Positions 3,301 to 44,385 of a stretch of DNA of 44,385 bases are shown here, in pieces. The position numbers and the translations under genes are program-made. Under the pieces are notes generated by a model. The model was not told the origin of the DNA, did no database searches, and saw only the letters and a program-made list of their open reading frames with translations. The stretch's first letter is position 1. Every line of letters begins with the position of its first letter. The stretch lies in sequence record NC_008152.1; one strand, given 5' to 3'. The DNA comes from Escherichia phage K1-5.

Positions 3301-5928
3301 ATGCAAGGCCTACACGCTATTCAACTTCAACTTGAAGAAGAAATGTTTAACGGCGGTATCCGTCGCTTTGAAGCGGACCAACAACGCCAGATTGCATCCG
3401 GTAATGAATCAGACACGGCATGGAATCGCCGCTTATTGTCCGAGTTAATCGCGCCAATGGCTGAAGGTATTCAGGCATACAAGGAAGAGTATGAAGGTAA
3501 AAGAGGCCGTGCACCGCGTGCATTAGCTTTCATTAACTGCGTAGAAAACGAAGTGGCAGCATATATCACGATGAAAATCGTTATGGATATGCTGAACACG
3601 GATGTAACCTTGCAGGCTATAGCCATGAATGTAGCTGACCGCATTGAGGACCAAGTACGTTTTAGCAAGCTGGAAGGTCACGCCGCCAAATACTTTGAAA
3701 AAGTTAAGAAGTCACTTAAGGCAAGTAAGACTAAATCATATCGCCATGCGCACAACGTAGCGGTAGTGGCTGAGAAGTCAGTAGCTGACCGTGACGCTGA
3801 TTTCTCCCGCTGGGAGGCATGGCCTAAAGACACCTTGCTGCAAATTGGGATGACCTTGCTTGAAATCTTAGAGAATAGCGTATTCTTCAACGGGCAACCT
3901 GTCTTCCTCCGCACCTTGCGCACTAATGGCGGCAAACATGGTGTTTACTACCTACAGACTAGTGAACACGTAGGTGAGTGGATAACTGCATTCAAAGAGC
4001 ACGTAGCGCAACTGAGTCCTGCCTATGCTCCTTGCGTCATCCCTCCGCGTCCGTGGGTATCACCTTTTAACGGCGGTTTCCACACTGAGAAAGTAGCAAG
4101 CCGTATTCGTCTGGTAAAAGGAAACCGCGAACACGTCCGCAAGCTGACCAAAAAGCAAATGCCAGAGGTTTACAAGGCTGTTAACGCGTTGCAGGCGACT
4201 AAATGGCAGGTTAACAAGGAAGTTTTACAGGTTGTGGAAGACGTCATCCGTCTAGACCTAGGTTATGGTGTACCTTCCTTTAAACCACTCATTGACCGCG
4301 AGAACAAGCCAGCTAATCCAGTGCCGCTAGAATTTCAGCACCTACGGGGCCGTGAACTGAAAGAAATGCTTACGCCGGAACAATGGCAAGCCTTTATCAA
4401 CTGGAAAGGTGAATGTACTAAGCTGTACACCGCTGAAACTAAGCGCGGAAGCAAATCGGCGGCAACCGTTCGCATGGTTGGTCAGGCCCGTAAATATAGC
4501 CAGTTCGACGCAATCTACTTCGTGTATGCACTGGACAGCCGCAGCCGCGTCTACGCGCAATCTAGCACACTCTCACCGCAATCAAATGACTTGGGCAAGG
4601 CCTTGCTCCGTTTTACCGAAGGGCAGCGTCTTGATAGCGCTGAGGCGCTTAAGTGGTTTTTGGTGAACGGGGCTAATAACTGGGGTTGGGATAAGAAAAC
4701 TTTTGACGTGCGCACCGCTAACGTGCTGGATAGTGAATTTCAAGACATGTGCCGCGACATTGCAGCGGATCCGCTGACCTTCACTCAATGGGTAAATGCC
4801 GACTCCCCTTACGGCTTCCTTGCATGGTGCTTTGAATATGCGCGTTATCTGGATGCACTGGATGAAGGCACGCAAGACCAATTCATGACGCACCTCCCAG
4901 TCCATCAAGATGGTAGTTGTTCTGGTATCCAGCACTACAGTGCTATGCTACGCGATGCAGTAGGTGCGAAAGCAGTAAACCTTAAGCCCTCTGACTCTCC
5001 TCAAGATATTTATGGTGCCGTTGCGCAGGTAGTAATTCAGAAGAATTATGCATACATGAATGCAGAGGATGCGGAAACCTTCACTTCTGGCAGCGTGACT
5101 TTAACAGGTGCGGAGCTGCGTAGTATGGCTAGTGCGTGGGATATGATAGGAATCACTCGCGGCCTGACCAAAAAGCCCGTAATGACACTACCTTATGGCA
5201 GCACACGTCTAACCTGCCGTGAGTCAGTGATTGATTATATCGTTGATTTAGAAGAAAAAGAGGCCCAACGGGCTATTGCGGAAGGGCGTACCGCCAATCC
5301 TGTACACCCTTTTGATAATGACCGTAAAGACAGCCTGACACCTAGCGCAGCTTATAACTATATGACAGCTTTAATCTGGCCTTCTATTTCGGAAGTGGTT
5401 AAAGCCCCTATAGTGGCAATGAAAATGATTCGTCAGCTTGCCCGTTTCGCAGCTAAAAGGAATGAAGGCTTAGAGTATACCCTGCCTACTGGCTTCATCT
5501 TGCAACAAAAGATTATGGCTACTGATATGCTCCGCGTATCTACTTGCTTGATGGGAGAAATCAAGATGAGTCTACAGATTGAAACAGACGTAGTGGATGA
5601 AACGGCAATGATGGGCGCTGCTGCTCCTAACTTTGTGCATGGTCATGATGCCAGCCACCTTATCTTAACAGTCTGCGACCTTGTTGATAAAGGGATTACA
5701 TCTATCGCAGTTATTCATGACTCTTTTGGCACTCATGCAGGCCGTACAGCCGACCTTCGTGATAGCTTAAGGGCAGAAATGGTGAAGATGTATCAAGGCC
5801 GTAATGCACTGCAAAGCCTGCTAGATGAGCACGAAGAACGCTGGTTAGTTGATACCGGAATACAAGTACCAGAGCAAGGGGAGTTTGACCTTAACGAAAT
5901 CTTAGTTTCAGACTATTGCTTCGCATAA
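3301..5928 (+). CDS. T7-like single-subunit DNA-directed RNA polymerase
   Basis: 875 aa; [16 protein letters not shown] (motif A), IHDSFGTHA (motif C), C-terminal ...DYCFA; AGGAG RBS. Confidence 0.97.
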
Positions 5929-5936
5929 TATTAATA

Positions 5937-5966
5937 GGCCATTCCTTCGGGAGTGGCCTTTCTTTT
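5937..5966 (+). terminator. Hairpin with UUCG-type loop plus T-run just after the RNAP gene
   Basis: ggccattcc-ttcg-ggagtggcc followed by tttctttt. Confidence 0.55.
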
Positions 5967-6001
5967 ACCTACTACCTGTAACATTTCATTAACATAAAAG
6001 T

Positions 6002-6017
6002 GTCTCACATGTGAGAC
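6002..6017. promoter_or_regulatory. 16-bp perfect palindrome GTCTCACATGTGAGAC (copy 1)
   Basis: Read directly; immediately upstream of promoter 6020. Confidence 0.6.
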
Positions 6018-6019
6018 TT

Positions 6020-6040
6020 ATTTACCGGACACTATAGGAT
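6020..6040 (+). promoter_or_regulatory. Phage RNAP promoter (early-type variant)
   Basis: atttaccggacactataggat; 2 nt downstream of a 16-bp palindrome. Confidence 0.6.
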
Positions 6041-6140: not shown

Positions 6141-6182
6141 CCTTCCTCTTATTACCACTCAGAGGAAGGGCAGACCTAGGTT

Positions 6183-6198
6183 GTCTCACATGTGAGAC
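6183..6198. promoter_or_regulatory. 16-bp palindrome GTCTCACATGTGAGAC (copy 2)
   Basis: Read directly; upstream of promoter-like 6204. Confidence 0.6.
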
Positions 6199-6203
6199 TT
6201 CGT

Positions 6204-6383: not shown

Positions 6384-8372
6384 ATGGCTATTATTCAGAA
6401 TGTACCGTGTCCTGCCTGTCAAAAGAATGGACATGATATTACTGGCAACCATCTCATGATATTTGATGATGGTGCCGGCTACTGTAATCGTGGACACTTT
6501 CATGATAATGGTAGACCTTACTATCACAAGCCGGAAGGTGGCATCGAGATAACCGAGTTATCTATTACTGGCAATATCAAATATACACCTTCTCAATTCA
6601 AAGAAATGGAGAAGGAAGGGAAGATAAGCGACCCTAAATTACGTGCCATCGCACTTGGTGGTATGCGTATGAAAGACCGTTGGGAGGTCATGAATGAACA
6701 AGAAAGGGCAGAGCAAGAAGCAGAGTGGAAACTTGATGTTGAATGGTTCCTCACGCTTAAGCGTAAGAACCTTGTTTCCAGGCACATTCGCGGCGACATT
6801 TGCGCATTGTATGATGTACGTGTTGGGCACGATGAAGAGGGTAGAGTCTCACGGCATTACTATCCGCGCTTCGAAAAAGGTGAGCTAGTAGGCGCTAAGT
6901 GTCGCACATTACCTAAAGATTTTAAGTTTGGTCATTTAGGTAAACTCTTTGGTATGCAAGATCTTTTCGGTATGAATACTTTGTCTCACGTGTTAGACAA
7001 GGGAAGACGAAAGGATTGCTTGCTCATTGTCGGCGGCGAACTGGATGCACTAGCAGCGCAGCAGATGCTCCTTGATTCTGCCAAGGGTACTAAGTGGGAA
7101 GGCCAGCCATACCATGTATGGTCTGTCAACAAAGGCGAGTCTTGCCTTGAAGAGATAGTGCAGAACCGTGAGCATATCGCCCAATTCAAGAAGATTATAT
7201 GGGGTTTTGATGGAGATGAGGTAGGGCAGAAGCAGAATCAGCAAGCGGCTCGCCTGTTTCCTGGTAAATCCTATATCCTTGAATACCCCTCTGGTTGCAA
7301 AGATGCTAACAAGGCATTGATGGCTGGCAAGGCTAAAGAATTTGTAGATGCATGGTTTAATGCCAAGTCATCTGATGAAGTCTTTGGTAGCCAGATTAAA
7401 TCTATCGCATCTCAAAGGGATAAGCTCAAGGCTGCACGTCCAGAGCAAGGACTGTCATGGCCTTGGCCTAAGCTGAACAAGGTAACGCTAGGTATTCGTA
7501 AGAACCAGCTTATCATTGTAGGTGCAGGGTCTGGTGTAGGTAAGACTGAGTTCCTTCGTGAAGTAGTTAAGCACCTCATTGAAGAACACGGTGAATCTGT
7601 AGGCATCATTTCTACAGAAGACCCGATGGTCAAGGTGTCCCGTGCTTTTATCGGCAAGTGGATTGATAAGCGTATTGAGTTACCTCCAACCAACGACCCG
7701 AAAGAAGACGGATACCGTGAGGTGTTCGACTATACCGAGGAAGAAGCTAACGCCGCCATTGATTATGTAGCTGATACAGGTAAGCTGTTTGTAGCTGACC
7801 TAGAGGGTGACTATTCGATGGAAAAGGTAGAGCAAACTTGCCTAGAGTTTGAGGCTATGGGTATTTCTAATATCATCATTGATAACTTAACGGGGATTAA
7901 ATTAGATGAGCGTGCTTTTGGTGGGAAGGTTGGTGCACTTGATGAATGCGTCAAGCGGATTGGTACTATCAAAGACCGACACCCGGTTACTATATTCCTT
8001 GTATCACACCTTACACGTCCTCCGGCAAACCGTACCCAACACGAAGAAGGTGGCGAAGTTATCCTTTCTGACTTCCGAGGCTCAGGCGCTATCGGATTCT
8101 GGGCATCTTACGCCTTGGGGATTGAGCGTAATACAAGAGCTGAAACGCTTGACGAAAGGACTACCACGTACATCTCATGTGTCAAAGACCGCGACCAAGG
8201 TATCTACACTGGAACCAAGGTCATGCTTAAGGGTGACATTCAAACCGGACGTTTAATGGAACCACAAGCCCGTACTAAGTCATTTGATACAGGTGAAGCA
8301 AGGCAACAAGAAGTACCAGATTTACCGGATACTATAGAAGAGACTACCTTCGATGAAGAAAGTGAGTTCTGA
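6384..8372 (+). CDS. DNA primase/helicase (T7 gp4-like)
   Basis: 662 aa; N-terminal Cys4 zinc ribbon (CPACQ...YCNRGH), Walker A GAGSGVGKTEF, acidic C-terminus ...DEESEF. Confidence 0.95.
   Translation: MAIIQNVPCPACQKNGHDITGNHLMIFDDGAGYCNRGHFHDNGRPYYHKPEGGIEITELSITGNIKYTPSQFKEMEKEGKISDPKLRAIALGGMRMKDRWEVMNEQERAEQEAEWKLDVEWFLTLKRKNLVSRHIRGDICALYDVRVGHDEEGRVSRHYYPRFEKGELVGAKCRTLPKDFKFGHLGKLFGMQDLFGMNTLSHVLDKGRRKDCLLIVGGELDALAAQQMLLDSAKGTKWEGQPYHVWSVNKGESCLEEIVQNREHIAQFKKIIWGFDGDEVGQKQNQQAARLFPGKSYILEYPSGCKDANKALMAGKAKEFVDAWFNAKSSDEVFGSQIKSIASQRDKLKAARPEQGLSWPWPKLNKVTLGIRKNQLIIVGAGSGVGKTEFLREVVKHLIEEHGESVGIISTEDPMVKVSRAFIGKWIDKRIELPPTNDPKEDGYREVFDYTEEEANAAIDYVADTGKLFVADLEGDYSMEKVEQTCLEFEAMGISNIIIDNLTGIKLDERAFGGKVGALDECVKRIGTIKDRHPVTIFLVSHLTRPPANRTQHEEGGEVILSDFRGSGAIGFWASYALGIERNTRAETLDERTTTYISCVKDRDQGIYTGTKVMLKGDIQTGRLMEPQARTKSFDTGEARQQEVPDLPDTIEETTFDEESEF
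8320..8340 (+). promoter_or_regulatory. Near-consensus phage promoter inside the 3' end of the primase/helicase gene
   Basis: atttaccggatactatagaag. Confidence 0.45.
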
Positions 8373-8387
8373 TTAGTGTATTTATCA

Positions 8388-8413
8388 GGCTTGTCTCACA
8401 TGTGAGACAGGCT
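8388..8413. promoter_or_regulatory. Extended hairpin around palindrome copy 3
   Basis: caggcttGTCTCACATGTGAGACaggctc; follows the primase/helicase stop. Confidence 0.6.
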
Positions 8414-8447
8414 CTTATTAAGTACATTAAATAACTGGAGATTGATT

Positions 8448-9131
8448 ATGTATAACTTAGTGTTGAATGTAGGTGACTTTGTACGCAACATCAAGAAAGA
8501 TTCAAGTCGCTATCTTTGCCGTGGTGTTGTAACCTTTGTAGGTGAGAACCTGTATTATGTAGAATATCGCAGTGGTGTTAAGCAATATTACCACAAGAAG
8601 ACAGCACATAAATATCTTGAAAAGATTGTAGAGATAAACAATCAATGTAAGTGCATACATGATGAGGTTTGCGATAAATGTGCTCGCCAGATGCTTAAGA
8701 ATTTCCTAGCTCCTCTTTATTATGGTGCTGGTCCTCAAACACTAGCAGAGTGCATGGCAGAAAAGAAAACCACACTCAAGAAAGAGCGTCGCAATGTAAT
8801 CACTGGTAAGACTCAAAGTGAGATGATTAAGCAATGTGGCACTGCATTAGGTGTTACACAGTTTAATACTCGTGCATTGGGTAAATCCACAGGACAAGCT
8901 ATGGTAAAGATTGGAGAAGCCATGATGCATCCAAATGTACCTGTGCGAATCATGGATGTTGACCATGCAATCACAGAACAAGGTACGCAACGACGTGTAA
9001 TTAATAAGCATTTTGCCGACACTATAGAAGGCATTATTCGTAAGCAAGGGTTGAAAGGTCTTCACATCTTAAATGGTGAAGAATTACTGTACCTACCTAT
9101 CGTTACTGAAGAAACATACGTGAATATCTAA
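8448..9131 (+). CDS. Hypothetical protein (227 aa)
   Basis: Track ORF 8442 (TTG); ATG 8448 with GGAG RBS; Cys-rich segment CKCIHDEVCDKC. Confidence 0.6.
   Translation: MYNLVLNVGDFVRNIKKDSSRYLCRGVVTFVGENLYYVEYRSGVKQYYHKKTAHKYLEKIVEINNQCKCIHDEVCDKCARQMLKNFLAPLYYGAGPQTLAECMAEKKTTLKKERRNVITGKTQSEMIKQCGTALGVTQFNTRALGKSTGQAMVKIGEAMMHPNVPVRIMDVDHAITEQGTQRRVINKHFADTIEGIIRKQGLKGLHILNGEELLYLPIVTEETYVNI
9010..9030 (+). promoter_or_regulatory. Promoter-like core inside coding sequence
   Basis: attttgccgacactatagaag; core conserved, upstream part divergent. Confidence 0.25.
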
Positions 9132-9141
9132 GGAGTTAATC

Positions 9142-9360
9142 ATGACTAAGGTATTAATTTATATGCGTGGACCTCATAAATGCTATGCAGTTGTAGCACC
9201 AAATGGTGTTAAGCCTTATCGTACTTCAAAAAGATTGGCATTAATAGGTGCTAGTAGTAGTGCAAGTTTCCAAATGGAACTTTTTGGTCATTGGACTGAA
9301 AGGCAATTCCGTGAGGATTTTAAAGTCATTGGCAGCTTCATGGTGAAATATGCAGAATAA
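9142..9360 (+). CDS. Hypothetical protein (72 aa)
   Basis: TAAGGAG RBS; ORF track. Confidence 0.5.
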   Translation: MTKVLIYMRGPHKCYAVVAPNGVKPYRTSKRLALIGASSSASFQMELFGHWTERQFREDFKVIGSFMVKYAE

Positions 9361-9559
9361 ACATAGTCTTAGAATGTTCGATGGTCATGAAAACCTGCAA
9401 GCCAAGATTACTAACCAAGCCTTCCTGTTCGCACAGTTAACTATGGCTGAGGCTAAGAAGAATAGTCTCACTCGTGAACAGGTTATCAAGGAGGCCACTT
9501 GGGAACCACACCAAGGTAAATATATGGGCCACAAATTAACTGTAACACGCAGTCGATAA
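9350..9559 (+). CDS. Hypothetical protein (69 aa)
   Basis: ORF track; start overlaps end of previous gene. Confidence 0.45.
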   Translation: MQNKHSLRMFDGHENLQAKITNQAFLFAQLTMAEAKKNSLTREQVIKEATWEPHQGKYMGHKLTVTRSR

Positions 9560-9617
9560 GTCAAGGGTTGTCCAACGTGTTGGACAGCCTTTCATCATAT
9601 TGATTGGGAGGTATTAA

Positions 9618-9770
9618 ATGACTAAGTTTACTATGCAAGACCTCATTAAATTACGTGATGAAATAGAATCACCGGAAGTTAATACAGAGTTTCACTACAT
9701 TGATCCACGAGATAAACGAGAGATTCCTGATTATCAGATTGAGACGGAGTTAATGTATGAAGATTATTGA
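9618..9770 (+). CDS. Small acidic protein (50 aa), below ORF-track cutoff
   Basis: GGGAGG RBS then ATG 9618; stop overlaps the DNA polymerase start. Confidence 0.4.
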   Translation: MTKFTMQDLIKLRDEIESPEVNTEFHYIDPRDKREIPDYQIETELMYEDY

Positions 9771-12297
9771 TTGGAAGAAGGAAGCAGAAGGCCGTATCCT
9801 AGTGATGGATGCGGAGGCTAAAGGCCTGCTGGGTGCTATCCGCTACGGTCATCGTGAAGATGTACACATTATTTGCTGCATGGACTTGCTCACCACTGAG
9901 GAGTTCCTCTTCTTCGACCCATATGAGATGCGTGACCCTGAAGCAAGGGAACACTTGAAAGAGTGGGAAGGCCATCAAGATGGGACCTTGGTTGATGGTG
10001 TTAACTTCCTAAAGCACTGTGAAGCCATCGTCTCACAGAACTTCCTAGGCTATGACGGGCTTCTCTTTGAGAAAGCCTTCCCTGACATCTGGAAGGGATT
10101 TAACTACACCGAGAGGCGCGGCAAGGGCAGACTACGTGCTGACTTGTGTCCGGTACGCGTCATGGATACGCTGGTCATGAGTCGCCTGTTAAACCCAGAT
10201 AGACGCCTTCCTCCGCAAGCATATGCCAAAGGTATGGGTAACGTTGCCCCTCACTCAATTGAGGCGCACGGCATTCGTATAGGCCGTTATAAGCCGGAGA
10301 ACGAGGATTGGTCTAAACTAACTGACCACATGGTACATCGTGTACGCGAGGACGTGGCGATAGGCCGTGACCTATTCCTCTGGCTATTTAACGGAGAATG
10401 GACGGAGCACAAACGCCGTGGCGTGAATAAACGCACTGGCCTAGGTATTGAGACAGCCTTCCACATGGAGTCCATTGTGACGCTGGAGATGAGCCGTCAG
10501 GCCGAGCGTGGATTCCGTCTGGATATAGATAAAGCATTAGCACGATGCGAGGAATTGGACGCTAAGATTGATGAGACAGTCGCAGCGTTCCGTCCGCACA
10601 TGCCTATGCGTATCAAGTCTAAACCTTTTAAACCGGAAGAAAAGAATGAAGTATGCCAACGCGCAAATGAGTATGGAGCTAGCAACAATATACCTACTGT
10701 CCTTGACCCCTCTCACTTTCTTCACGCAGAGAGACGAGGAGATCGCAAGACAGTATGGAGTGTCACTACTAAGTCTGGTGATTGGTCGGCTAGCGTCAAG
10801 AAAGACTTTCCTCACCTTAGAGGAAACCGTAATGACACGCCAAGTGTCAAGTGGATTGGCGCTTACTCGCCTGTTACTTTCGAAGAGATTCCCTTGGGTA
10901 ACAGGGATACAGTTAAGCAAGTGCTCTATGATTATGGATGGAAAGGTGTTGAATTTAACGATACCGAGCAAGCGCATCTCGATGAGCATGGCGTATTACC
11001 CAAGCCTTGGAGTGGGAAGATAAATGAAAAGTCCCTTACTTTATGGCAAGAGAGAGCCGCACGTGAAGGTAAAACAGTCCCTGATTGGTGCTTGGGTATC
11101 GCTGCATGGTACATACTCGTATCCCGTCGTGGTCAGATCCTCAACCGTGGTGACGTTGAAGCCTTCGACCAGAAGGGGGTGTGGCCTTCGCAAGCTGGTA
11201 TACGAAAGTGTCGCGGCCTTGTACCTGTAGCATTTAACAAGGAGTTAGGAATCAATGCGCAGCAATACTACGAAAGGTACGGATGCTGGCCTACGTCAGA
11301 CAAGGATGACGGAGAATGGCGTGTGCCAGCTATTGCTATTAGTATTGGAACTTCTACGTTCCGTATGCGTCATCGTAACGTGGTTAATATTCCTGCCCGT
11401 GGCTTGTATCCTTTACGTGATTTATTCATAGCAGGGAAAGGCAAGCTAATCCTTGGTTGTGACGGTGCAGGTCTTGAACTGCGTGTCCTGTCTCACTTCA
11501 TGAATGACCCTGAGTACCAAGAGATTGTACTGCACGGTGATATTCATACGCATAACCAGATGAAGGCTGGTCTTCCTAAGCGTGATATGGCGAAGACATT
11601 TATATATGCCTTCCTATATGGGTCTGGTATAGCTAACCTTGCAGCAGTATGTGGTGTTACTGAGGAAGAAATGGAGGAAGTTGTGGCAAGATTTGAGGTT
11701 GAACTACCATCTCTTGCACGTCTTCGTGAGAATGTTATCGCACAAGGTAACAAGTTTGGCTACCTACAAGCACCTGATGGTCATTGGGGTCGCATCCGTA
11801 TGTCTGGTGGTGAACTTAAAGAACACACTATGCTTAACGTACTACTCCAGATGACTGGTTCTCTGTGTATGAAATACGCATTGGTCAGAGCGTTTGCAGT
11901 GATGCGCAAGGAAGGTGTGGCCTTAGATAGCATGGGAAACCCTTGCGGTATAGCTAACGTGCACGATGAAATCCAGATGGAAGTCCCTGAAGATGAGGTC
12001 TTGTATCTCAACTACGACTTGCCTTTCACCTTAGAAGGGTTCGAAACAGAGAAGGCTGCTGTGAAAGCAGTGTTCGATGCAGAGGAGAAACGTGTTCATG
12101 TGGATTCTGAAGGACGTATGTGGTCTGCTGCAAATCTCGTTAGTGTTGATGCTGGTGTACTTCATTGCCAGCGTCGTTATCACCGTGCAGGGCATATCAT
12201 TGCCGACGCAATGACCTGGGCGGGTCAGTACCTGAAGATGCGTTGTCCGATGGCAGGTGAGTATAAGATTGGTGCAAGTTGGAAGGAAACACACTGA
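9757..12297 (+). CDS. Family A DNA polymerase with 3'-5' exonuclease domain (T7 gp5-like)
   Basis: 846 aa; exo motif VMDAEAKG, pol motif A CDGAGLELRVLSHF, motif B RDMAKTFIYAFLYGSG, motif C VHDEIQ. Confidence 0.97.
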   Translation: MKIIDWKKEAEGRILVMDAEAKGLLGAIRYGHREDVHIICCMDLLTTEEFLFFDPYEMRDPEAREHLKEWEGHQDGTLVDGVNFLKHCEAIVSQNFLGYDGLLFEKAFPDIWKGFNYTERRGKGRLRADLCPVRVMDTLVMSRLLNPDRRLPPQAYAKGMGNVAPHSIEAHGIRIGRYKPENEDWSKLTDHMVHRVREDVAIGRDLFLWLFNGEWTEHKRRGVNKRTGLGIETAFHMESIVTLEMSRQAERGFRLDIDKALARCEELDAKIDETVAAFRPHMPMRIKSKPFKPEEKNEVCQRANEYGASNNIPTVLDPSHFLHAERRGDRKTVWSVTTKSGDWSASVKKDFPHLRGNRNDTPSVKWIGAYSPVTFEEIPLGNRDTVKQVLYDYGWKGVEFNDTEQAHLDEHGVLPKPWSGKINEKSLTLWQERAAREGKTVPDWCLGIAAWYILVSRRGQILNRGDVEAFDQKGVWPSQAGIRKCRGLVPVAFNKELGINAQQYYERYGCWPTSDKDDGEWRVPAIAISIGTSTFRMRHRNVVNIPARGLYPLRDLFIAGKGKLILGCDGAGLELRVLSHFMNDPEYQEIVLHGDIHTHNQMKAGLPKRDMAKTFIYAFLYGSGIANLAAVCGVTEEEMEEVVARFEVELPSLARLRENVIAQGNKFGYLQAPDGHWGRIRMSGGELKEHTMLNVLLQMTGSLCMKYALVRAFAVMRKEGVALDSMGNPCGIANVHDEIQMEVPEDEVLYLNYDLPFTLEGFETEKAAVKAVFDAEEKRVHVDSEGRMWSAANLVSVDAGVLHCQRRYHRAGHIIADAMTWAGQYLKMRCPMAGEYKIGASWKETH

Positions 12298-12413
12298 TGG
12301 ACAGGTTTGATATTGTTTGCCTATTCTCTACCTTCTTTCTTATATTCCTTATGCTTGCTTGCTATGGAAGTATGCGATTAGATATACCTGATGAAGAGGA
12401 GGGTTACGATTGA
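12297..12413 (+). CDS. Tiny hydrophobic peptide (38 aa)
   Basis: ATG overlaps DNAP stop (TGATG); MDRFDIVCLFSTFFLIFLMLACYG... is a single predicted TM helix. Confidence 0.3.
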   Translation: MDRFDIVCLFSTFFLIFLMLACYGSMRLDIPDEEEGYD

Positions 12414-12511
12414 TGCAGGCATCTTTTATTATTCTTGGAGTCATATTATTTATGGTAGTATTCTGGGCTTTCTCTGGCATTGACCCAGATTGTGATGGTA
12501 ACTACGACTGA
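12413..12511 (+). CDS. Tiny hydrophobic peptide (32 aa)
   Basis: GAGGAGGG RBS 9 nt upstream; MQASFIILGVILFMVVFWAF... TM-like. Confidence 0.3.
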   Translation: MQASFIILGVILFMVVFWAFSGIDPDCDGNYD

Positions 12512-12579: not shown

Positions 12580-12600
12580 ATTTACTGGACACTATAGAAG
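12580..12600 (+). promoter_or_regulatory. Phage RNAP promoter (perfect consensus)
   Basis: atttactggacactatagaag. Confidence 0.8.
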
Positions 12601-12666: not shown

Positions 12667-13044
12667 ATGTCTATGGTAACTACTCTGGTATTCGTGGCTC
12701 AATACTTTCGTGGTCTTGCTAATAAGTTCAAGTCCAAGGCTATCAAAGCTATTGAGGCTCGCATCGAAGCAGTACAGGCAGAGCAAGTTAAAGTTGAAGA
12801 ACATCGTAGTTCTCAAATGATTGACTGTCATAACCGCTACTATGCATCTCGTGATGAACTAAATGCACGTCAAGTCAAAGAGGTAGAAGATATGCTGGCA
12901 CGTCACCAGCAAGAGCGTGACAGCCTGAAAGCTGAATTTGAAGAGAACAAGGCATCAATTGCTCTTGTACATCAAGCTGCATCTGACAGTCTGAAGAAAG
13001 AGATTGTTATGCTGGAAATCGAACTGGATAACCTGACCAAATAA
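12667..13044 (+). CDS. Hypothetical coiled-coil protein (125 aa)
   Basis: AGGAGA RBS; downstream of a consensus phage promoter. Confidence 0.6.
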   Translation: MSMVTTLVFVAQYFRGLANKFKSKAIKAIEARIEAVQAEQVKVEEHRSSQMIDCHNRYYASRDELNARQVKEVEDMLARHQQERDSLKAEFEENKASIALVHQAASDSLKKEIVMLEIELDNLTK

Positions 13045-13053
13045 GGGGGGGTT

Positions 13054-13353
13054 ATGATGGAAGAAGTAATTCAAGCTAAACATGTAGGTATTATCTTTCG
13101 CGATCTAGAGCAGCGTAAAGTTGCAGGTCATACTCGTCTGGCTAAAGAGGAAGACACCGCAATCACTACTGTAGAACAAGCAGATGCCTATCGTGGACCA
13201 GAGTTCACTCAAGGTGAAACTTGTCACCAATTGAGCCTATCAATTTGTGACACTATGGCTATTGTAAATGTGCAAGAAGTCGAAGAGGGTGAGTGTGTCA
13301 GTTACATCTACCCTTTAGATACTATTGCACGCATTAAGGTAATCCATAAGTAA
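13054..13353 (+). CDS. Hypothetical protein (99 aa)
   Basis: GGGGGG RBS-like tract before ATG; ORF track. Confidence 0.5.
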   Translation: MMEEVIQAKHVGIIFRDLEQRKVAGHTRLAKEEDTAITTVEQADAYRGPEFTQGETCHQLSLSICDTMAIVNVQEVEEGECVSYIYPLDTIARIKVIHK

Positions 13354-13373
13354 TTACTAGACACTATAGAACA
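13353..13373 (+). promoter_or_regulatory. Phage RNAP promoter variant
   Basis: attactagacactatagaaca. Confidence 0.45.
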
Positions 13374-14557: not shown

Positions 14558-14558
14558 A

Positions 14559-14574
14559 GTCTCACGTGTGAGAC
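14559..14574. promoter_or_regulatory. Palindrome variant GTCTCACGTGTGAGAC (copy 4)
   Basis: Loop differs (CGTG vs CATG), stem conserved; upstream of promoter 14590. Confidence 0.55.
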
Positions 14575-14589
14575 AAATCGGTGTCCGGT

Positions 14590-14610
14590 ATTTACTGGAC
14601 ACTATAGAAG
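14590..14610 (+). promoter_or_regulatory. Phage RNAP promoter (perfect consensus)
   Basis: atttactggacactatagaag; 15 nt downstream of a palindrome variant. Confidence 0.8.
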
Positions 14611-22851: not shown

Positions 22852-22872
22852 ATTTACTGGACACTATAGAAG
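22852..22872 (+). promoter_or_regulatory. Phage RNAP promoter (perfect consensus) upstream of major capsid gene
   Basis: atttactggacactatagaag followed by gggag. Confidence 0.85.
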
Positions 22873-28049: not shown

Positions 28050-30997
28050 TGGCAATTGAGCGACAAGCAGTACAAGGTCTGCCACAAGTGCAGGCCACTT
28101 CTCCTAATGTCATGACCTTTGCACCTCAACAAGTGGGAGGTGTGGAGGCTGGCGTGGCTTCTACCTCCGGTAGTAGGTTTATCGAAGACCTTATTCGTGC
28201 AGCAAGCAGCGTGGCTGATGTTACCACTGGTATCCTTAATCAGAAGATTGAGGAAGATAAGGTTGTTCAAATGGAACGGGCATATAACGGATTAATGCCT
28301 TCTGAGGATGCAACTCGTGGTGGCGCTCGTGCTAACATGCTTGTCAAAGCTCAACTGCTAGCTAATGATGAAGCAGCACGAATGAAAGACATGGCTACTC
28401 GTTTCCAAGGAACGGATGACGAATGGACACAACTTATGGTTGACTCTCGTAATGAGATGCAGAATAAGCTGTTCCAGCAATACCCTGAGTTGCAAGGTGA
28501 CAAAGATACTATGCGTATGGTCACTAATGTCTTCCAAGAACAGCAGCCTCAGATTTGGGCTACACGAACCCAGCATAAACTTGACCGTGAACAAGCAGAC
28601 CGTGAGGATACCTTTGACGGGCGAGTGGCTTCTACTTGGGATTCTAATATTGACCCTGAAGCCTCTGGCTATGCTTTACAGGAACGAATCCGCGAAGGTC
28701 TTACTCAAGGATTACTACCTGAACAGATGTACAAGAAGTTAGTCCAGCGAGCAATTTCACTTGCACAAGGCGGTGATGTTAGCATGGCTGAAGCCCTGAA
28801 GTATGTGAAGGACGATAAGGGTGTTTCTGTTTATGCTAAGAATCCACAGCTTATCACAGCCATCACTAGTGGTAATGCAGTTTGGGCTAGGAATAATGTA
28901 GCTGATGTAACTCGTATGTCTTTCGAAGTTAAAGAATCCTACCTTGCAGGTGATTTAACTGATGAAGAATTGTTGGAACGAGCACAGCACATTAATAATC
29001 TGACAGGTAACTCTGTCTTCTCTAATCCAGAACTAGAGGCACTGATGCGCCAACGGGCTAAGCAGAATGCAGAGCTAGGTGCAATGCAGGATATGCGACG
29101 TGAGCTTTACTCCGACCGCCTGACTGGCTTCCAAGGTAAGACTGATAAAGAGAAGAAGGCTTACATTGATGTTATCAAACAGGATAGCCAACTTTATGCA
29201 GACCAGCAAATCAAACAACGTGGCTTGGACCCTTACAGTCAAGAGGCTGAAGCTATTCGTGGTGCAGTGGAAGTGCAGCGCCTGCAATTCATGAACTCCA
29301 AAGGCTTAGTGGATGATACCTTTGAGTCTCGTATCAAAGCCATGGAATCTATGCTATCGCCTGAGCACTTTGCCAAGGGCGAACCACAGGAGTTGATGAC
29401 TATTCGCCAGTTGTGGGAACAGTTACCAGAAGAGAGCCGAGGTGTCTTTGGTGACACGGTGAATGGCTACATGGATAACTACAACACTGCACTACAAATG
29501 GGAGAGACACCTTTGCAGGCTGCAAGGTTTGCGCGTAAAGCACAGCAGAAATTCTCTCGTACTGAGAAGGAAACCAAGAAGTTCAACTCAGCTATTGGAG
29601 ATGCACTGGATGAGGTATCTGGTGCTGGCTGGTTTGATGGTAAAACCGAAGTGTCAGACTTAGGTAAAGCTATTGCGGAAGAAGAGTTACGAGCTAAGGC
29701 CAATATGTTGTGGTCTAGTGGTATGCGTAACATGGATTCCATCAAGAAGGCTTTAATTACTTGGGGCAATAAACGCTACACTCAATCAGAGGATGCAAAG
29801 ACTTCCGGTGGCTATTTCATTAAAGGTGATTACACTTCTGCATCTGATATGCTTATGTCAGTTGGGAAAGGCGTAAACCCTACCGATGTACCTCTGGCGC
29901 TTGGTAGGTATGTAGAAACACAGATGCCAGAATTGAAGAAGGAGCTTCAAGAGGGGGAAACTAAAGATGATATATACATTGATTACAATGAACAGAAAGG
30001 TACTTTCGTGATTCGTGCTGGTGCAGCAGGTCGCCCTCTTTCTGGAGTAATCCCTGTAACCTCTTTAGATACCACTTCACTACTAGATTCTGCCTATCAG
30101 AAGAAAGTAGAGGAACGAGATAAAGGCGAGTATGTTCACCCGTATCGTACAGATATTGGTGCACAAGAGCCTATGCCAGCTAAACCAACTGCCAAAGATA
30201 TTGGTAAATTTGGACTAGCTAACTTCCTCATGTCTTCTGCTTTTGCTTCTGGTGAGAATCTGCCTTCTAACTTCGAGATTAACTATCGAGGTAATATGCA
30301 ACAATTCTATGACAAGCTAGCTATGGATGAGAATAAAGATAAAGTTGGCTTTAATAAGGCAACTGGAACCTTTACTCCATATAAAGACGCTCACGGTGAG
30401 TCTATCGGTTACGGTCATTTCTTAACGGAAGAAGAGAAGCGAAACGGGTATATTAAGATTGGCGATGAACTAGTTCCCTATCGAGGGTCTATGTCTCAGC
30501 TTACAGAGAGCAAGGCTCGCGCTCTTATGGAGCAAGATGCTAAGAAGCATGTGCCTCCTACTCGTGACTGGAAGATTCCGTTTGACCAGATGCACCCTGC
30601 ACAGCAACGTGGCTTGATGGATTTAAGCTACAATTTAGGTAAAGGTGGAATCCAGAACTCACCGCGTGCTCTTGCTGCATTCAAAGCTGGTAAGCTTACG
30701 GAGGGCTTTATCGAAATGCTGGGCACTGCATCAAGTGAAGGTAAGCGTATTCCTGGCCTACTGAAGCGACGCGCTGAGGCATACAATATGGCATCTGCTG
30801 GTGGTGTGCCTAAGATTACCGAAGTGGAGACTCGTGAAGATGGCTCCATGTGGGTTAGGTTTGGTGGACCTATGCCAGCAGGTTCTGTCTCGGCATGGAC
30901 TCATAAACGTATTGGCGCGGATGGTTGGTATCAGGTTTATGAGGCTGCACCTACCAAGTTAGCTAAAGATTCTAAGGTAGGTAAAGTTAAGTTGTAG
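28049..30997 (+). CDS. Internal virion (core) protein, gp15-like, with C-terminal T4-lysozyme-like (GH24) domain
   Basis: 982 aa; C-terminal YKDAHGESIGYGH...LMDLSYNLGKGG...LLKRRAEAYNMA parallels T4 lysozyme YKDTEGYYTIGIGH...ALINMVFQMG. Confidence 0.75.
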   Translation: MAIERQAVQGLPQVQATSPNVMTFAPQQVGGVEAGVASTSGSRFIEDLIRAASSVADVTTGILNQKIEEDKVVQMERAYNGLMPSEDATRGGARANMLVKAQLLANDEAARMKDMATRFQGTDDEWTQLMVDSRNEMQNKLFQQYPELQGDKDTMRMVTNVFQEQQPQIWATRTQHKLDREQADREDTFDGRVASTWDSNIDPEASGYALQERIREGLTQGLLPEQMYKKLVQRAISLAQGGDVSMAEALKYVKDDKGVSVYAKNPQLITAITSGNAVWARNNVADVTRMSFEVKESYLAGDLTDEELLERAQHINNLTGNSVFSNPELEALMRQRAKQNAELGAMQDMRRELYSDRLTGFQGKTDKEKKAYIDVIKQDSQLYADQQIKQRGLDPYSQEAEAIRGAVEVQRLQFMNSKGLVDDTFESRIKAMESMLSPEHFAKGEPQELMTIRQLWEQLPEESRGVFGDTVNGYMDNYNTALQMGETPLQAARFARKAQQKFSRTEKETKKFNSAIGDALDEVSGAGWFDGKTEVSDLGKAIAEEELRAKANMLWSSGMRNMDSIKKALITWGNKRYTQSEDAKTSGGYFIKGDYTSASDMLMSVGKGVNPTDVPLALGRYVETQMPELKKELQEGETKDDIYIDYNEQKGTFVIRAGAAGRPLSGVIPVTSLDTTSLLDSAYQKKVEERDKGEYVHPYRTDIGAQEPMPAKPTAKDIGKFGLANFLMSSAFASGENLPSNFEINYRGNMQQFYDKLAMDENKDKVGFNKATGTFTPYKDAHGESIGYGHFLTEEEKRNGYIKIGDELVPYRGSMSQLTESKARALMEQDAKKHVPPTRDWKIPFDQMHPAQQRGLMDLSYNLGKGGIQNSPRALAAFKAGKLTEGFIEMLGTASSEGKRIPGLLKRRAEAYNMASAGGVPKITEVETREDGSMWVRFGGPMPAGSVSAWTHKRIGADGWYQVYEAAPTKLAKDSKVGKVKL

Positions 30998-31007
30998 TAC
31001 CTAACTC

Positions 31008-31037
31008 AAGGCTTGTCTCACATGTGAGACAGGTCTT
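31008..31037. promoter_or_regulatory. Extended hairpin around palindrome copy 5
   Basis: aaggcttGTCTCACATGTGAGACaggtcttt; between gp15-like and gp16-like genes. Confidence 0.6.
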
Positions 31038-35218: not shown

Positions 35219-35413
35219 ATGATTAACTCCGAACTGGTAGATAGTGGTGTGAAGCTTGCGCCACCTGCACTCATATCAGGTGGGTACTTCCTCGGTATCA
35301 GTTGGGATAATTGGGTGTTAATAGCAACATTCATTTATACCGTGTTGCAAATTGGGGACTGGTTTTATAATAAGTTCAAGATTTGGAGGGAGAAGCGTGA
35401 GCGTACACAATAA
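35219..35413 (+). CDS. Class II holin (T7 gp17.5-like)
   Basis: 64 aa; AAGGAGG RBS; IYTVLQIG with charged C-terminus resembles T7 holin AYTVVQIG...; directly before the small terminase gene as in T7. Confidence 0.75.
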   Translation: MINSELVDSGVKLAPPALISGGYFLGISWDNWVLIATFIYTVLQIGDWFYNKFKIWREKRERTQ

Positions 35414-35696
35414 ACATGCAGCTACAGAGGACGAGGTTGGCATTCTGCATGGTGCTATTACCAAAATCTTCAATAAGAAAGCACAGGCAATACTGGACAC
35501 TATAGAAGAAGACCCTGATGCAGCATTACATTTAGTGTCTGGTAAGGATATTGGTGCGATGTGTAAGTGGGTTCTTGATAACGGCATTACCGCCACACCT
35601 GCTGCACAGCAGGAAGAGTCCAAGTTATCTAAGCGCCTCAAGGCTATCCGAGAGGCATCCAGTGGTAAGATAATTCAATTCACTAAGGAGGATTGA
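35397..35696 (+). CDS. Terminase small subunit (gp18-like)
   Basis: Track ORF 35352; likely GTG 35397 start after GGAGGGAG; directly upstream of the large subunit; assignment by synteny. Confidence 0.55.
   Translation: MSVHNKHAATEDEVGILHGAITKIFNKKAQAILDTIEEDPDAALHLVSGKDIGAMCKWVLDNGITATPAAQQEESKLSKRLKAIREASSGKIIQFTKED
35488..35508 (+). promoter_or_regulatory. Near-consensus phage promoter embedded in the small terminase gene
   Basis: caatactggacactatagaag; 18 of 21 positions match, all mismatches at the 5' edge. Confidence 0.45.
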
Positions 35697-37594
35697 TGGC
35701 TAAGGCAAGAGAATCACAAGCGGAGGCTCTTGCCAGATGGGAGATGCTACAGGAGTTACAGCAGACCTTTCCTTACACCGCGGAAGGTTTGCTTCTCTTT
35801 GCAGATACAGTTATTCATAACTTAATTGCAGGCAACCCTCATCTGATTCGTATGCAGGCGGATATCTTGAAGTTCCTATTTTACGGACACAAGTACCGCC
35901 TCATCGAAGCGCCTCGTGGTATCGCTAAGACAACACTATCAGCAATCTATACGGTATTCCGTATTATTCATGAACCGCATAAGCGTATCATGGTTGTGTC
36001 CCAAAACGCCAAGCGAGCAGAGGAAATCGCAGGTTGGGTAGTTAAAATCTTCCGTGGCTTAGACTTTCTTGAGTTTATGCTGCCGGATATCTACGCTGGG
36101 GACCGTGCATCCGTTAAGGCGTTTGAGATTCATTACACCCTACGTGGTAGTGATAAGTCTCCTTCTGTATCCTGTTACTCAATCGAAGCAGGTATGCAGG
36201 GTGCTCGTGCTGATATTATTCTAGCGGATGACGTAGAGTCGATGCAGAATGCTCGTACGGCAGCGGGCCGTGCCTTGCTTGAGGAGCTGACTAAGGAGTT
36301 TGAATCTATCAACCAGTTTGGGGATATCATTTACCTTGGTACACCTCAGAACGTAAACTCTATCTACAACAACCTACCTGCTCGTGGTTACTCTGTTCGT
36401 ATCTGGACTGCGCGTTACCCTTCAGTAGAGCAAGAGCAATGTTATGGCGACTTCCTTGCACCTATGATTGTTCAAGATATGAAGGACAACCCAGCACTTC
36501 GCTCAGGGTACGGGTTGGATGGTAATAGTGGTGCACCTTGTGCCCCTGAAATGTATGATGATGAAGTCCTGATTGAGAAGGAAATCTCTCAGGGTGCTGC
36601 TAAGTTCCAGCTTCAGTTCATGCTTAACACTCGCATGATGGATGCTGACAGATACCCATTACGCCTGAACAATCTAATCTTCACCTCGTTTGGTACAGAG
36701 GAAGTCCCTGTGATGCCTACGTGGAGTAATGATTCCATAAACATCATTGGTGATGCACCTAAGTATGGTAACAAGCCTACGGATTTCATGTACAGACCTG
36801 TAGCTCGCCCATATGAATGGGGTGCTGTCTCCCGCAAGATTATGTATATTGACCCTGCGGGTGGTGGTAAGAACGGAGATGAGACGGGTGTAGCCATCGT
36901 ATTCCTGCACGGCACATTCATTTATGTGTATCAGTGCTTTGGTGTACCTGGCGGATACCGAGAGTCGTCCCTGAATCGCATTGTGCAGGCCGCAAAGCAG
37001 GCGGGTGTTAAAGAGGTATTCATTGAGAAGAACTTTGGTCATGGCGCGTTTGAGGCGGTAATTAAGCCGTACTTTGAACGAGAGTGGCCTGTAACTCTGG
37101 AAGAGGATTACGCCACCGGACAGAAAGAGTTGCGTATCATTGAGACGCTGGAGCCGCTCATGGCAGCCCATAGGCTTATCTTCAATGCAGAGATGGTGAA
37201 GTCAGACTTTGAGTCGGTACAGCACTATCCGCTTGAACTACGCATGTCCTACAGTCTTTTCAATCAAATGTCGAACATAACGATTGAGAAGAACAGCCTC
37301 CGGCACGATGACCGCCTAGACGCCCTGTATGGCGCTATACGGCAATTAACTTCTCAGATAGACTATGACGAGGTTACACGGATTAATCGCCTCAGAGCGC
37401 AGGAGATGCGCGATTACATCCATGCTATGAACACACCTCATCTACGCAGGGCAATGCTATATGGAGATTACGGTACTGAGCGAAGAGTGACCAACACTTC
37501 CGTAGCGATGCAGCAGCGAGTTTACGGGCAGAACTACCGAAATAAATCGGCAAGCAGAAATACACTTTCTGCAAGGATTTCAAGGACTTATTAA
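35696..37594 (+). CDS. Terminase large subunit (gp19-like)
   Basis: 632 aa; AAGGAGG RBS; deviant Walker A RGIAKTT, Walker B IILADDVE, RNaseH-like nuclease segment IDPAGGGKNGDETGVAI. Confidence 0.9.
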   Translation: MAKARESQAEALARWEMLQELQQTFPYTAEGLLLFADTVIHNLIAGNPHLIRMQADILKFLFYGHKYRLIEAPRGIAKTTLSAIYTVFRIIHEPHKRIMVVSQNAKRAEEIAGWVVKIFRGLDFLEFMLPDIYAGDRASVKAFEIHYTLRGSDKSPSVSCYSIEAGMQGARADIILADDVESMQNARTAAGRALLEELTKEFESINQFGDIIYLGTPQNVNSIYNNLPARGYSVRIWTARYPSVEQEQCYGDFLAPMIVQDMKDNPALRSGYGLDGNSGAPCAPEMYDDEVLIEKEISQGAAKFQLQFMLNTRMMDADRYPLRLNNLIFTSFGTEEVPVMPTWSNDSINIIGDAPKYGNKPTDFMYRPVARPYEWGAVSRKIMYIDPAGGGKNGDETGVAIVFLHGTFIYVYQCFGVPGGYRESSLNRIVQAAKQAGVKEVFIEKNFGHGAFEAVIKPYFEREWPVTLEEDYATGQKELRIIETLEPLMAAHRLIFNAEMVKSDFESVQHYPLELRMSYSLFNQMSNITIEKNSLRHDDRLDALYGAIRQLTSQIDYDEVTRINRLRAQEMRDYIHAMNTPHLRRAMLYGDYGTERRVTNTSVAMQQRVYGQNYRNKSASRNTLSARISRTY

Positions 37595-39264: not shown

Positions 39265-39285
39265 ATTTACTGGACACTATAGAAG
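39265..39285 (+). promoter_or_regulatory. Phage RNAP promoter (perfect consensus) upstream of tailspike cassette
   Basis: atttactggacactatagaag. Confidence 0.8.
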
Positions 39286-44151: not shown

Positions 44152-44385
44152 TCGCCCTCGCCCTCGCCGGGTTGTCCCCATAGGGTGGCCTGAGGGAATC
44201 CGTCTTCGACGGGCAGGGCTGATGTACTCCTTGTCTAGTACAAGGGAGGCGGAGGGAACGCCTAGGGAGGCCTAGGAATGGCTTAGTGGTGGACAAGGTG
44301 ATTACCTTAGTGAAGCCTCTTAGTGCATTCCTGAGGCCATTCAGGGCGTTTATGAGGGATTGACAGGGTGTGAGGGCGTGGGCTA
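44152..44385. repeat. Right direct terminal repeat (234 bp)
   Basis: Exact copy of 1..234 read by eye; window ends exactly at the repeat end. Confidence 0.95.

Follow-up and report, generated by a model that had tools for sequence, protein, structure and literature searches.

Probable promoters for the phage RNA polymerase inside three coding sequences of Escherichia phage K1-5

Results

Genome, RNA polymerase and promoter family

The window analysed here is the whole 44,385-bp genome of Escherichia phage K1-5 (NC_008152.1), with a 234-bp terminal direct repeat. It is the complete genome of an SP6-like podophage (genus Vectrevirus) and its long reading frames are all on the + strand. The nearest relatives in the phage collection were other Vectrevirus genomes (e.g. 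K1E and AAPEc6), while SP6 was found to be farther off. The features of the genome which are relevant for this study are listed in Table 1; among them is the gene of a single-subunit RNA polymerase, the enzyme expected to use the promoters described below.

Table 1. Genes, promoter-family members and related elements of the K1-5 genome, with the primase/helicase tail promoters of related phages
Feature	Position	Strand	Details
Single-subunit phage RNA polymerase gene	3301..5928	+	phrog_414, E = 5e-290
DNA primase/helicase gene	6384..8372	+	662 codons; family profile match ends at residue 645
Promoter-like site, primase/helicase 3' end	8320..8340	+	ATTTACCGGATACTATAGAAG; predicted start G at 8337
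Extended hairpin directly 3' of primase/helicase stop	8373..8430	+	18-bp perfect palindrome core TGTCTCACATGTGAGACA
gp10-like hypothetical gene	8448..9131	+	227-codon protein, phrog_6703
Promoter-like site in gp10-like gene	9010..9030	+	ATTTTGCCGACACTATAGAAG; predicted start G at 9027
Small terminase gene (terS)	35397..35696	+	phrog_891; GTG start after GGAGGGAG
Promoter-like site in terS	35488..35508	+	CAATACTGGACACTATAGAAG; predicted start G at 35505
terL Shine-Dalgarno sequence	35684..35690	+	AAGGAGG; inside terS 3' end, 5 nt before ATG 35696
Large terminase gene (terL)	35696..37594	+	ATG overlaps terS stop (TGATG)
Perfect-consensus promoters	12580-12600, 14590-14610, 22852-22872, 39265-39285	+	0 mismatches
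Further promoter-family members (start positions)	2014, 6020, 6204, 13352, 17755, 37593	+	consensus and weight matrix
Tail promoter orthologous to 8320, other Vectrevirus			GATTTACCGGACACTATAGAAG
Tail promoter orthologous to 8320, SP6			GAATTAGGTGACACTATAGAAG
Tail promoter orthologous to 8320, Klebsiella phage Koku004			GATTTAGGTGACACTATAGAAC
Tail promoter orthologous to 8320, Pectobacterium phage PP1			GACTTAGGGCGGACTATAGAAC
Tail promoter orthologous to 8320, Proteus phage Pm5460			GAATTAGAGACCACTATAGAAG
Tail promoter orthologous to 8320, Erwinia phage phiEa100			GAATTACCACCCAGCATAGAAG
Tail promoter orthologous to 8320, Vibrio phage BD1			GAATTACAGGACAGTAGTGGAC; core quite different

The promoter consensus of the genome itself, ATTTACTGGACACTATAGAAG (about 21 bp, from -17 to +4), was defined from the four perfect copies. 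Altogether 14 consensus-like sites could be recognized, every one of them on the coding (+) strand. When up to three mismatches to the consensus were allowed, 11 matches were obtained, again exclusively on the + strand, against 0.00 expected from 100 shuffles; the 13-mer GACACTATAGAAG with at most one mismatch gave 10 matches versus 0.09 expected. The sites are thus clearly non-random, and sigma-70-like matches in a consensus scan of the genome stayed at chance level. From -17 to +1 the consensus is identical with TATTTACTGGACACTATAGGAGGA, from which an SP6-like metagenomic RNA polymerase was demonstrated to transcribe in vitro (PMC13029058, Table 2).

Three members of the family (8320, 9010 and 35488) are situated well inside genes. 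A weight matrix was built from 10 other sites, with the three left out, and both strands were scored. The scores were 31.5, 19.6 and 25.4 bits for 8320, 9010 and 35488 (ranks 9, 14 and 12), and the best remaining position genome-wide, on either strand, reached 8.8. The promoters 13352, 17755 and 37593 share a few bases with the 3' end of the gene before them, the stop codon of which is built into the AT-rich part of the promoter (-17 to -12); the family therefore grades from intergenic promoters into sites that are wholly intragenic.

Promoter annotation in the related phages is sparse. The GenBank records of K1E and SP6 contain no annotated promoter features, the papers on UAB_Phi78, KBNP1315 and Pm5460 give predicted promoter counts and nothing beyond, and our literature search, which did not include the SP6 and K1-5 promoter-catalogue papers, turned up neither start-site mapping of a Molineuxvirinae phage nor in vitro transcription from the three sites described below.

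Reading frame, codon choice and diversity at the three intragenic sites

A sequence-only reading of this genome had placed promoter-like sequences in the 3' end of the primase/helicase gene, in a hypothetical gene and in the small terminase gene. All three are present on the + strand in these gene contexts, at 53, 122 and 209 nt before the gene end (stop codon counted), and they differ from the consensus in 2, 4 and 3 of the 21 positions, respectively; the last value agrees with the 18 of 21 matches originally counted at 35488. The frames stay open through all three sites and the whole promoter lies inside the ORF in each case.

Translation passes through all three sites in one common frame, in which GAC/GAT ACT ATA GAA encodes D-T-I-E, and the three D-T-I-E peptides of the proteome are exactly those at these sites. 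This shared frame is largely forced, since a stop codon (CTA TAG) closes one frame of the consensus; with the SP6-type consensus just one frame is open. The codons themselves are biased: given the peptides and the codon usage of the genome, the probability of promoter-compatible codons is P = 4-9e-4 per site. The core CACTATAG, which includes C at -7, is common to the T7, T3 and SP6 promoters; it is perfect at 9010 and 35488, and 8320 deviates from it with T at -7. All three sites have GAAG at +1 to +4, and the SP6 RNA polymerase is most active on starts with GAA at +1 to +3 (PMC7429497).

For the comparison within the genus, scans of IMG/VR gave 10 and 19 loci, and 12 unannotated GenBank Vectrevirus genomes were added. 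Third-position diversity was 0.035, 0.078 and 0.081 inside the 8320, 9010 and 35488 sites versus 0.164, 0.207 and 0.163 in the remainder of these three genes, i.e. two to five times lower in the codons of the sites. In a sliding-window test the 21-nt windows of the sites fell at the 8th-13th percentile of all coding windows, which is of weak significance; the power of this within-genus test is low because a site contains only seven or eight codons. Consequently the case rests mainly on co-variation between genera, codon choice and the chance statistics.

The 8320 site in the tail of the primase/helicase

The 8320 site occupies codons 646-653 (D-L-P-D-T-I-E-E), just behind the last residue covered by the family profile, in an acidic C-terminal tail ending in E-F. 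An orthologous promoter was found in the primase/helicase tail of every relative examined: Vectrevirus, SP6, Koku004, PP1, Pm5460, phiEa100 and BD1 (Table 1). In a mismatch matrix of six consensus groups the tail site had 1-4 mismatches to the consensus of its own group and 3-10 to the others, i.e. it co-varies with the promoter consensus of its own phage. Meanwhile the peptide changes across the genera (DLPDTIE, ELGDTIE, DLGRTIE, ELETTIE, ELPPSIE and ELQDSSG). As the promoter is kept and the peptide varies, the promoter is the conserved object, which the peptide follows. The earlier suggestion that such sequences are constrained both as protein and as promoter therefore holds only in part here, where the promoter is the dominant constraint; a true dual constraint was observed at the terS site (see below). 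Vibrio phage VP505 is more distant, and its promoter extends across the stop codon of the primase/helicase gene.

The two mismatches of 8320 are C at -11 and T at -7, and its other positions are consensus or variants known from other sites (e.g. CCGGA at 6020 and 6204). T at -7 occurs in this genome alone and is due to a synonymous GAC to GAT change; all the 21 Vectrevirus relatives have C, which is also invariant in the other 13 sites of the genome. In T7 the -7 base pair is contacted by the specificity loop of the polymerase. Changes at -9 to -7 of the T7 promoter are reported to cut its activity to <5% (PMC5937735). By analogy, the 8320 copy of this genome is probably weaker than those of the relatives. 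It may even be a crippled or inactive copy of a conserved promoter, to which we would give slightly less than an even chance: the same C-to-T singleton was observed in relatives at 13352 and at 35488, so T at -7 may be tolerated, and the rest of the site carries nothing that is foreign to the family.

A transcript from the predicted start at 8337 would pass through the hairpin that follows the gene. The palindrome in this hairpin (TGTCTCACATGTGAGACA, 8392-8409) is about 55 nt downstream of the start and was found at six other places as well, often beside promoters. The promoters 2014, 13352 and 39265 are likewise followed by a strong hairpin at a distance of no more than about 100 nt, and in Pm5460 hairpins are annotated as terminators directly after two promoters; what is seen at 8320 is therefore the usual arrangement for transcription units of this group. 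The hairpin after the primase/helicase gene was not called as a terminator in the consensus scan. In some relatives a small extra gene is inserted between the primase/helicase stop and the hairpin.

The 9010 site in the gp10-like gene

The codons of the 9010 site read H-F-A-D-T-I-E-G. Its core is perfect from -9 to +4. The recognition region holds all four mismatches (-13 to -10), which probably makes this site weaker than the other two. Across Vectrevirus it is conserved as H-F-A-D-T-I-E with an intact -9 to +4 core. Counterparts could be detected in SP6 (9112, TATTACGTGACACTATAGGTG) and in Koku004 (32371), where the distance to the stop of the homologous gene is about 94-100 nt versus 121 nt at 9010, and where the protein alignment shows a shift of about three codons between the positions. 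The site is missing from PP1, Pm5460 and one metagenomic relative. There is no other promoter between 9010 and 12580, and the latter is beyond the DNA polymerase gene; thus 9010, together with 8320, is the nearest promoter upstream of the DNA polymerase gene.

The 35488 site in the small terminase gene

The 35488 site encodes A-I-L-D-T-I-E-E and matches the consensus perfectly from -14 to +4; its three mismatches occupy -17 to -15. Two codons in a stretch of six are ATA, a rare codon that accounts for 16% of the Ile codons. The site is present in all the 25 Vectrevirus loci and is identical in 20 of them; the variants are two with T at -16, single cases of T at -7 and of G at +3, and a double variant with T at -16 and G at -8. 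It was absent outside Vectrevirus in the genera compared, and none of the sampled records has a promoter annotated in terS.

In the other genera the peptide is conserved as A-I-L-D-A-I-E-(E/D)-D-P-D, and it is encoded by the non-promoter codons ATC CTT GAT GCT ATC GAG or similar. Relative to them, the Vectrevirus motif has a single amino acid replacement, T for A, and about five synonymous substitutions, all of them toward the consensus. In this frame the K1-5-type CTGGA fits the peptide L-D, while the SP6-type GGTGA would need G-D. This suggests that the terS motif became a near-promoter when the specificity of the polymerase shifted.

According to the sequence-only reading, the 35488 site would give terL transcripts without terS. 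Mechanistically this is plausible, since the predicted start is downstream of the GTG of terS at 35397 and terL has its own AAGGAGG. No other promoter-like site is located between 22852 and 35488. The fold of the would-be terL leader starting at 35505 is not unusual (z = -1.2).

It could be argued that the matches are a by-product of the conservation of D-T-I-E at the protein level, or simply of chance, and have no role as a DNA signal. At terS a part of the similarity did pre-exist, because A-I-L-D-x-I-E-E-D-P-D is conserved as protein across genera. However, the same terS peptide uses non-promoter codons outside Vectrevirus, at 8320 it is the peptide that varies while the promoter is kept and tracks the consensus of each phage, the chance expectation is about zero, the codon probabilities given above already take the peptide as given, and 14 of the 14 sites are on the transcribed strand. 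A chance or protein-only origin of the three sites was therefore rejected on the chance, codon and co-variation evidence, and we regard it as very improbable.

Discussion

The statistics, the codon choice and the comparative data all support the view, already expressed in the sequence-only reading, that putative promoters of the phage RNA polymerase are embedded in coding sequence. We consider it likely, with good confidence, that the single-subunit RNA polymerase of the phage uses the three sites, which are accommodated in the coding sequence in a shared frame, as its promoters; the initiation by the polymerase at these sites, its strength and its effect on gene dosage are what we infer from the sequence comparisons. 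Transcription would start at the G residues 8337, 9027 and 35505 and proceed rightward, and the added transcripts would supplement those coming from the upstream promoters. The starts at 8320 and 9010 would serve the genes from gp10 through the DNA polymerase, and that at 35488 would serve terL onward.

We regard the 8320 site as this genome's version of an old promoter that has kept its syntenic position in the 3' end of the primase/helicase gene. The acidic tail of the protein would be poorly constrained, and its peptide would be set by the promoter which the phage polymerase recognizes. The 35488 site, on the other hand, would have arisen within Vectrevirus on the conserved A-I-L-D-A-I-E-E of terS: the A to T replacement and about five synonymous changes could have produced the -14 to +4 part of a K1-5-type promoter, which was then presumably fixed. 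The AAGGAGG of terL would permit its translation from a transcript starting at 35505. The more specific proposal is that the linker in front of the acidic C-terminal tail is a promoter-encoded peptide, rewritten with each change of polymerase specificity (six specificities were seen), and that the shift to CTGGA made the terS motif a near-promoter, which selection then completed into a new transcription unit uncoupling terL from terS; we lean toward it only slightly.

The polymerase might also bind the three sites for a purpose other than mRNA synthesis, e.g. for the priming or activation of replication, or at regulatory binding or pause sites. T7 promoters do serve at primary and secondary replication origins; 8320 lies among the replication genes, and downstream of it comes the 18-bp palindrome that recurs beside other promoters. 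Nevertheless, no replication-specific feature was seen at the three sites, all of them start with the optimal GAA and are oriented toward genes further downstream, and the tandem promoters 6020 and 6204 after the RNA polymerase gene are a better positional match to the T7 origin promoters phi1.1A/phi1.1B. Such a role seems improbable to us, and mRNA promoters remain the preferred explanation.

Intragenic promoters are a known, ordinary design of the T7-supergroup phages. In T7 the promoter phi4c (start at 12671 in the T7 RefSeq record) is, like 8320, inside the primase/helicase gene (4A/4B) on the coding strand; it supplements read-through transcription, and other T7 class II promoters overlap gene ends. 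The position is different, since phi4c precedes the end of gene 4 by about 600 nt while 8320 is within 53 nt of the gene end, where the C-terminal tail is encoded, and the promoter sequence and the polymerase specificity are different as well (TAATACGACTCACTATAG in T7, ATTTACTGGACACTATAG here). The understanding of T7-type phage transcription is unchanged by the three sites. What may be new is the clear evidence, from the comparison of the genera, that the tail peptide of the primase/helicase is rewritten with each change of promoter specificity; it may also be new that a promoter was apparently born within the terS gene of Vectrevirus.

These observations have practical consequences, too. Promoter searches that are limited to upstream regions or exclude coding sequence miss 3 of the 14 sites of this genome, and when such phages are recoded or refactored, promoters may be lost through synonymous codon replacements in gp10, terS or the primase/helicase tail. 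The primase/helicase tail offers a clean case of a DNA signal overriding protein sequence, and the terS site resembles a dated case of intragenic promoter birth.

The closest annotated parallel is in Proteus phage vB_PmiP_Pm5460 (NC_028916), where a promoter orthologous to 8320 is annotated at 8915-8937 inside the primase/helicase gene on the basis of a PHIRE prediction. The two proteins are 86% identical and the promoter is in the same frame (E-L-E-T-T-I-E-E), one mismatch away from the Pm5460 consensus, although its specificity region is AGACC versus CTGGA here; a small gene precedes the hairpin in that genome. The SP6 consensus differs at -12 to -10 (GGT versus CTG here). Three near-consensus sites of SP6 are in the D-T-I frame: one at 8411 (AATTAGGTGACACTATAGAAG) in the tail of the primase/helicase, one at 9112 in gene 10 and one at 29393, deep inside a virion gene. 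The small terminase gene of SP6 has no promoter-like site, unlike that of K1-5 with 35488. For the SP6 genome a number of 12 SP6 promoters has been stated (PMC11880802), and our scan of SP6 reaches 12 promoters only when the intragenic near-consensus sites 8411, 9112 and 29393 are included.

Palindromes, promoters and genome ends

It was recognized that a perfect 18-bp palindrome, TGTCTCACATGTGAGACA, is repeated as a family across the window (see the table). Each of the promoters 6020 and 6204 (named, as all promoters here, by the first position of the 21-bp phage polymerase site) is accompanied by a copy ending 1-4 nt upstream of its -17 position. Another copy precedes promoter 14590 by 15 nt, and the primase/helicase gene contains one copy internally. 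Syntenic copies are present in the related phage K1E (eight) and in SP6 (nine), the half-site being different in the latter (TGTCYAAC..GTTGGACA). A dimeric DNA-binding protein could use the palindromes as operators, or else they could act as RNA hairpins in processing or termination.

Palindromes and other elements located in the window
Feature	Sequence	Position	Remark
Palindrome copy	TGTCTCACATGTGAGACA	6001-6018	
Palindrome copy	TGTCTCACATGTGAGACA	6182-6199	
Palindrome copy	TGTCTCACATGTGAGACA	6982-6999	
Palindrome copy	TGTCTCACATGTGAGACA	8392-8409	
Palindrome copy	TGTCTCACATGTGAGACA	14558-14575	
Palindrome copy	TGTCTCACATGTGAGACA	31014-31031	
Palindrome variant		9569-9586	
Promoter-like site	ATTTACTTAACACTATATAAG	2323-2343	T at +1
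GC-rich hairpin, then T-run	GGCCATTCCTTCGGGAGTGGCCTTTCTTTT	5936-5966	directly 3' of the RNA polymerase gene

The GC-rich hairpin and its T-run look like an early terminator for the host polymerase. The first 234 bp of the window are repeated exactly at its other end (1-234 and 44152-44385, in direct orientation); the window is therefore a linear, terminally redundant genome in its complete form.

Comparison with related genomes

Two promoter variants are private to the window genome: A at -10 of promoter 13352-13372, where 19 relatives have G, and T at -7 of promoter 8320. In two Vectrevirus genomes the promoter preceding the tail-spike genes (39265-39285 in the window) carries the SP6-type GGT instead of CTG at -12 to -10, which suggests that the tail-spike module, together with its promoter, was imported there from a phage with SP6-type specificity. 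The promoter-like site at 2323-2343 is separated from the versions of the relatives by indels; it may represent a promoter that has decayed or is non-standard.

Deep within virion gene 35 of SP6 there is a promoter-like sequence, CGCTAGGTGACACTATAGGTG (29393-29413), read in the D-T-I frame common to the intragenic sites. It shares one pattern with the site inside the small terminase gene of the window, namely a perfect match from -13 to +1 and a poor one from -17 to -14.

In Vibrio phage BD1 many GGACCACAAGG repeats were observed at about 36000-37300 (reverse complement; about 9900-11200 of the record), inside a tail fiber gene (record 8219-12469), a large gene with the annotation 'hypothetical protein'. 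They have nothing to do with promoters and would fit collagen-like G-P-Q repeats.
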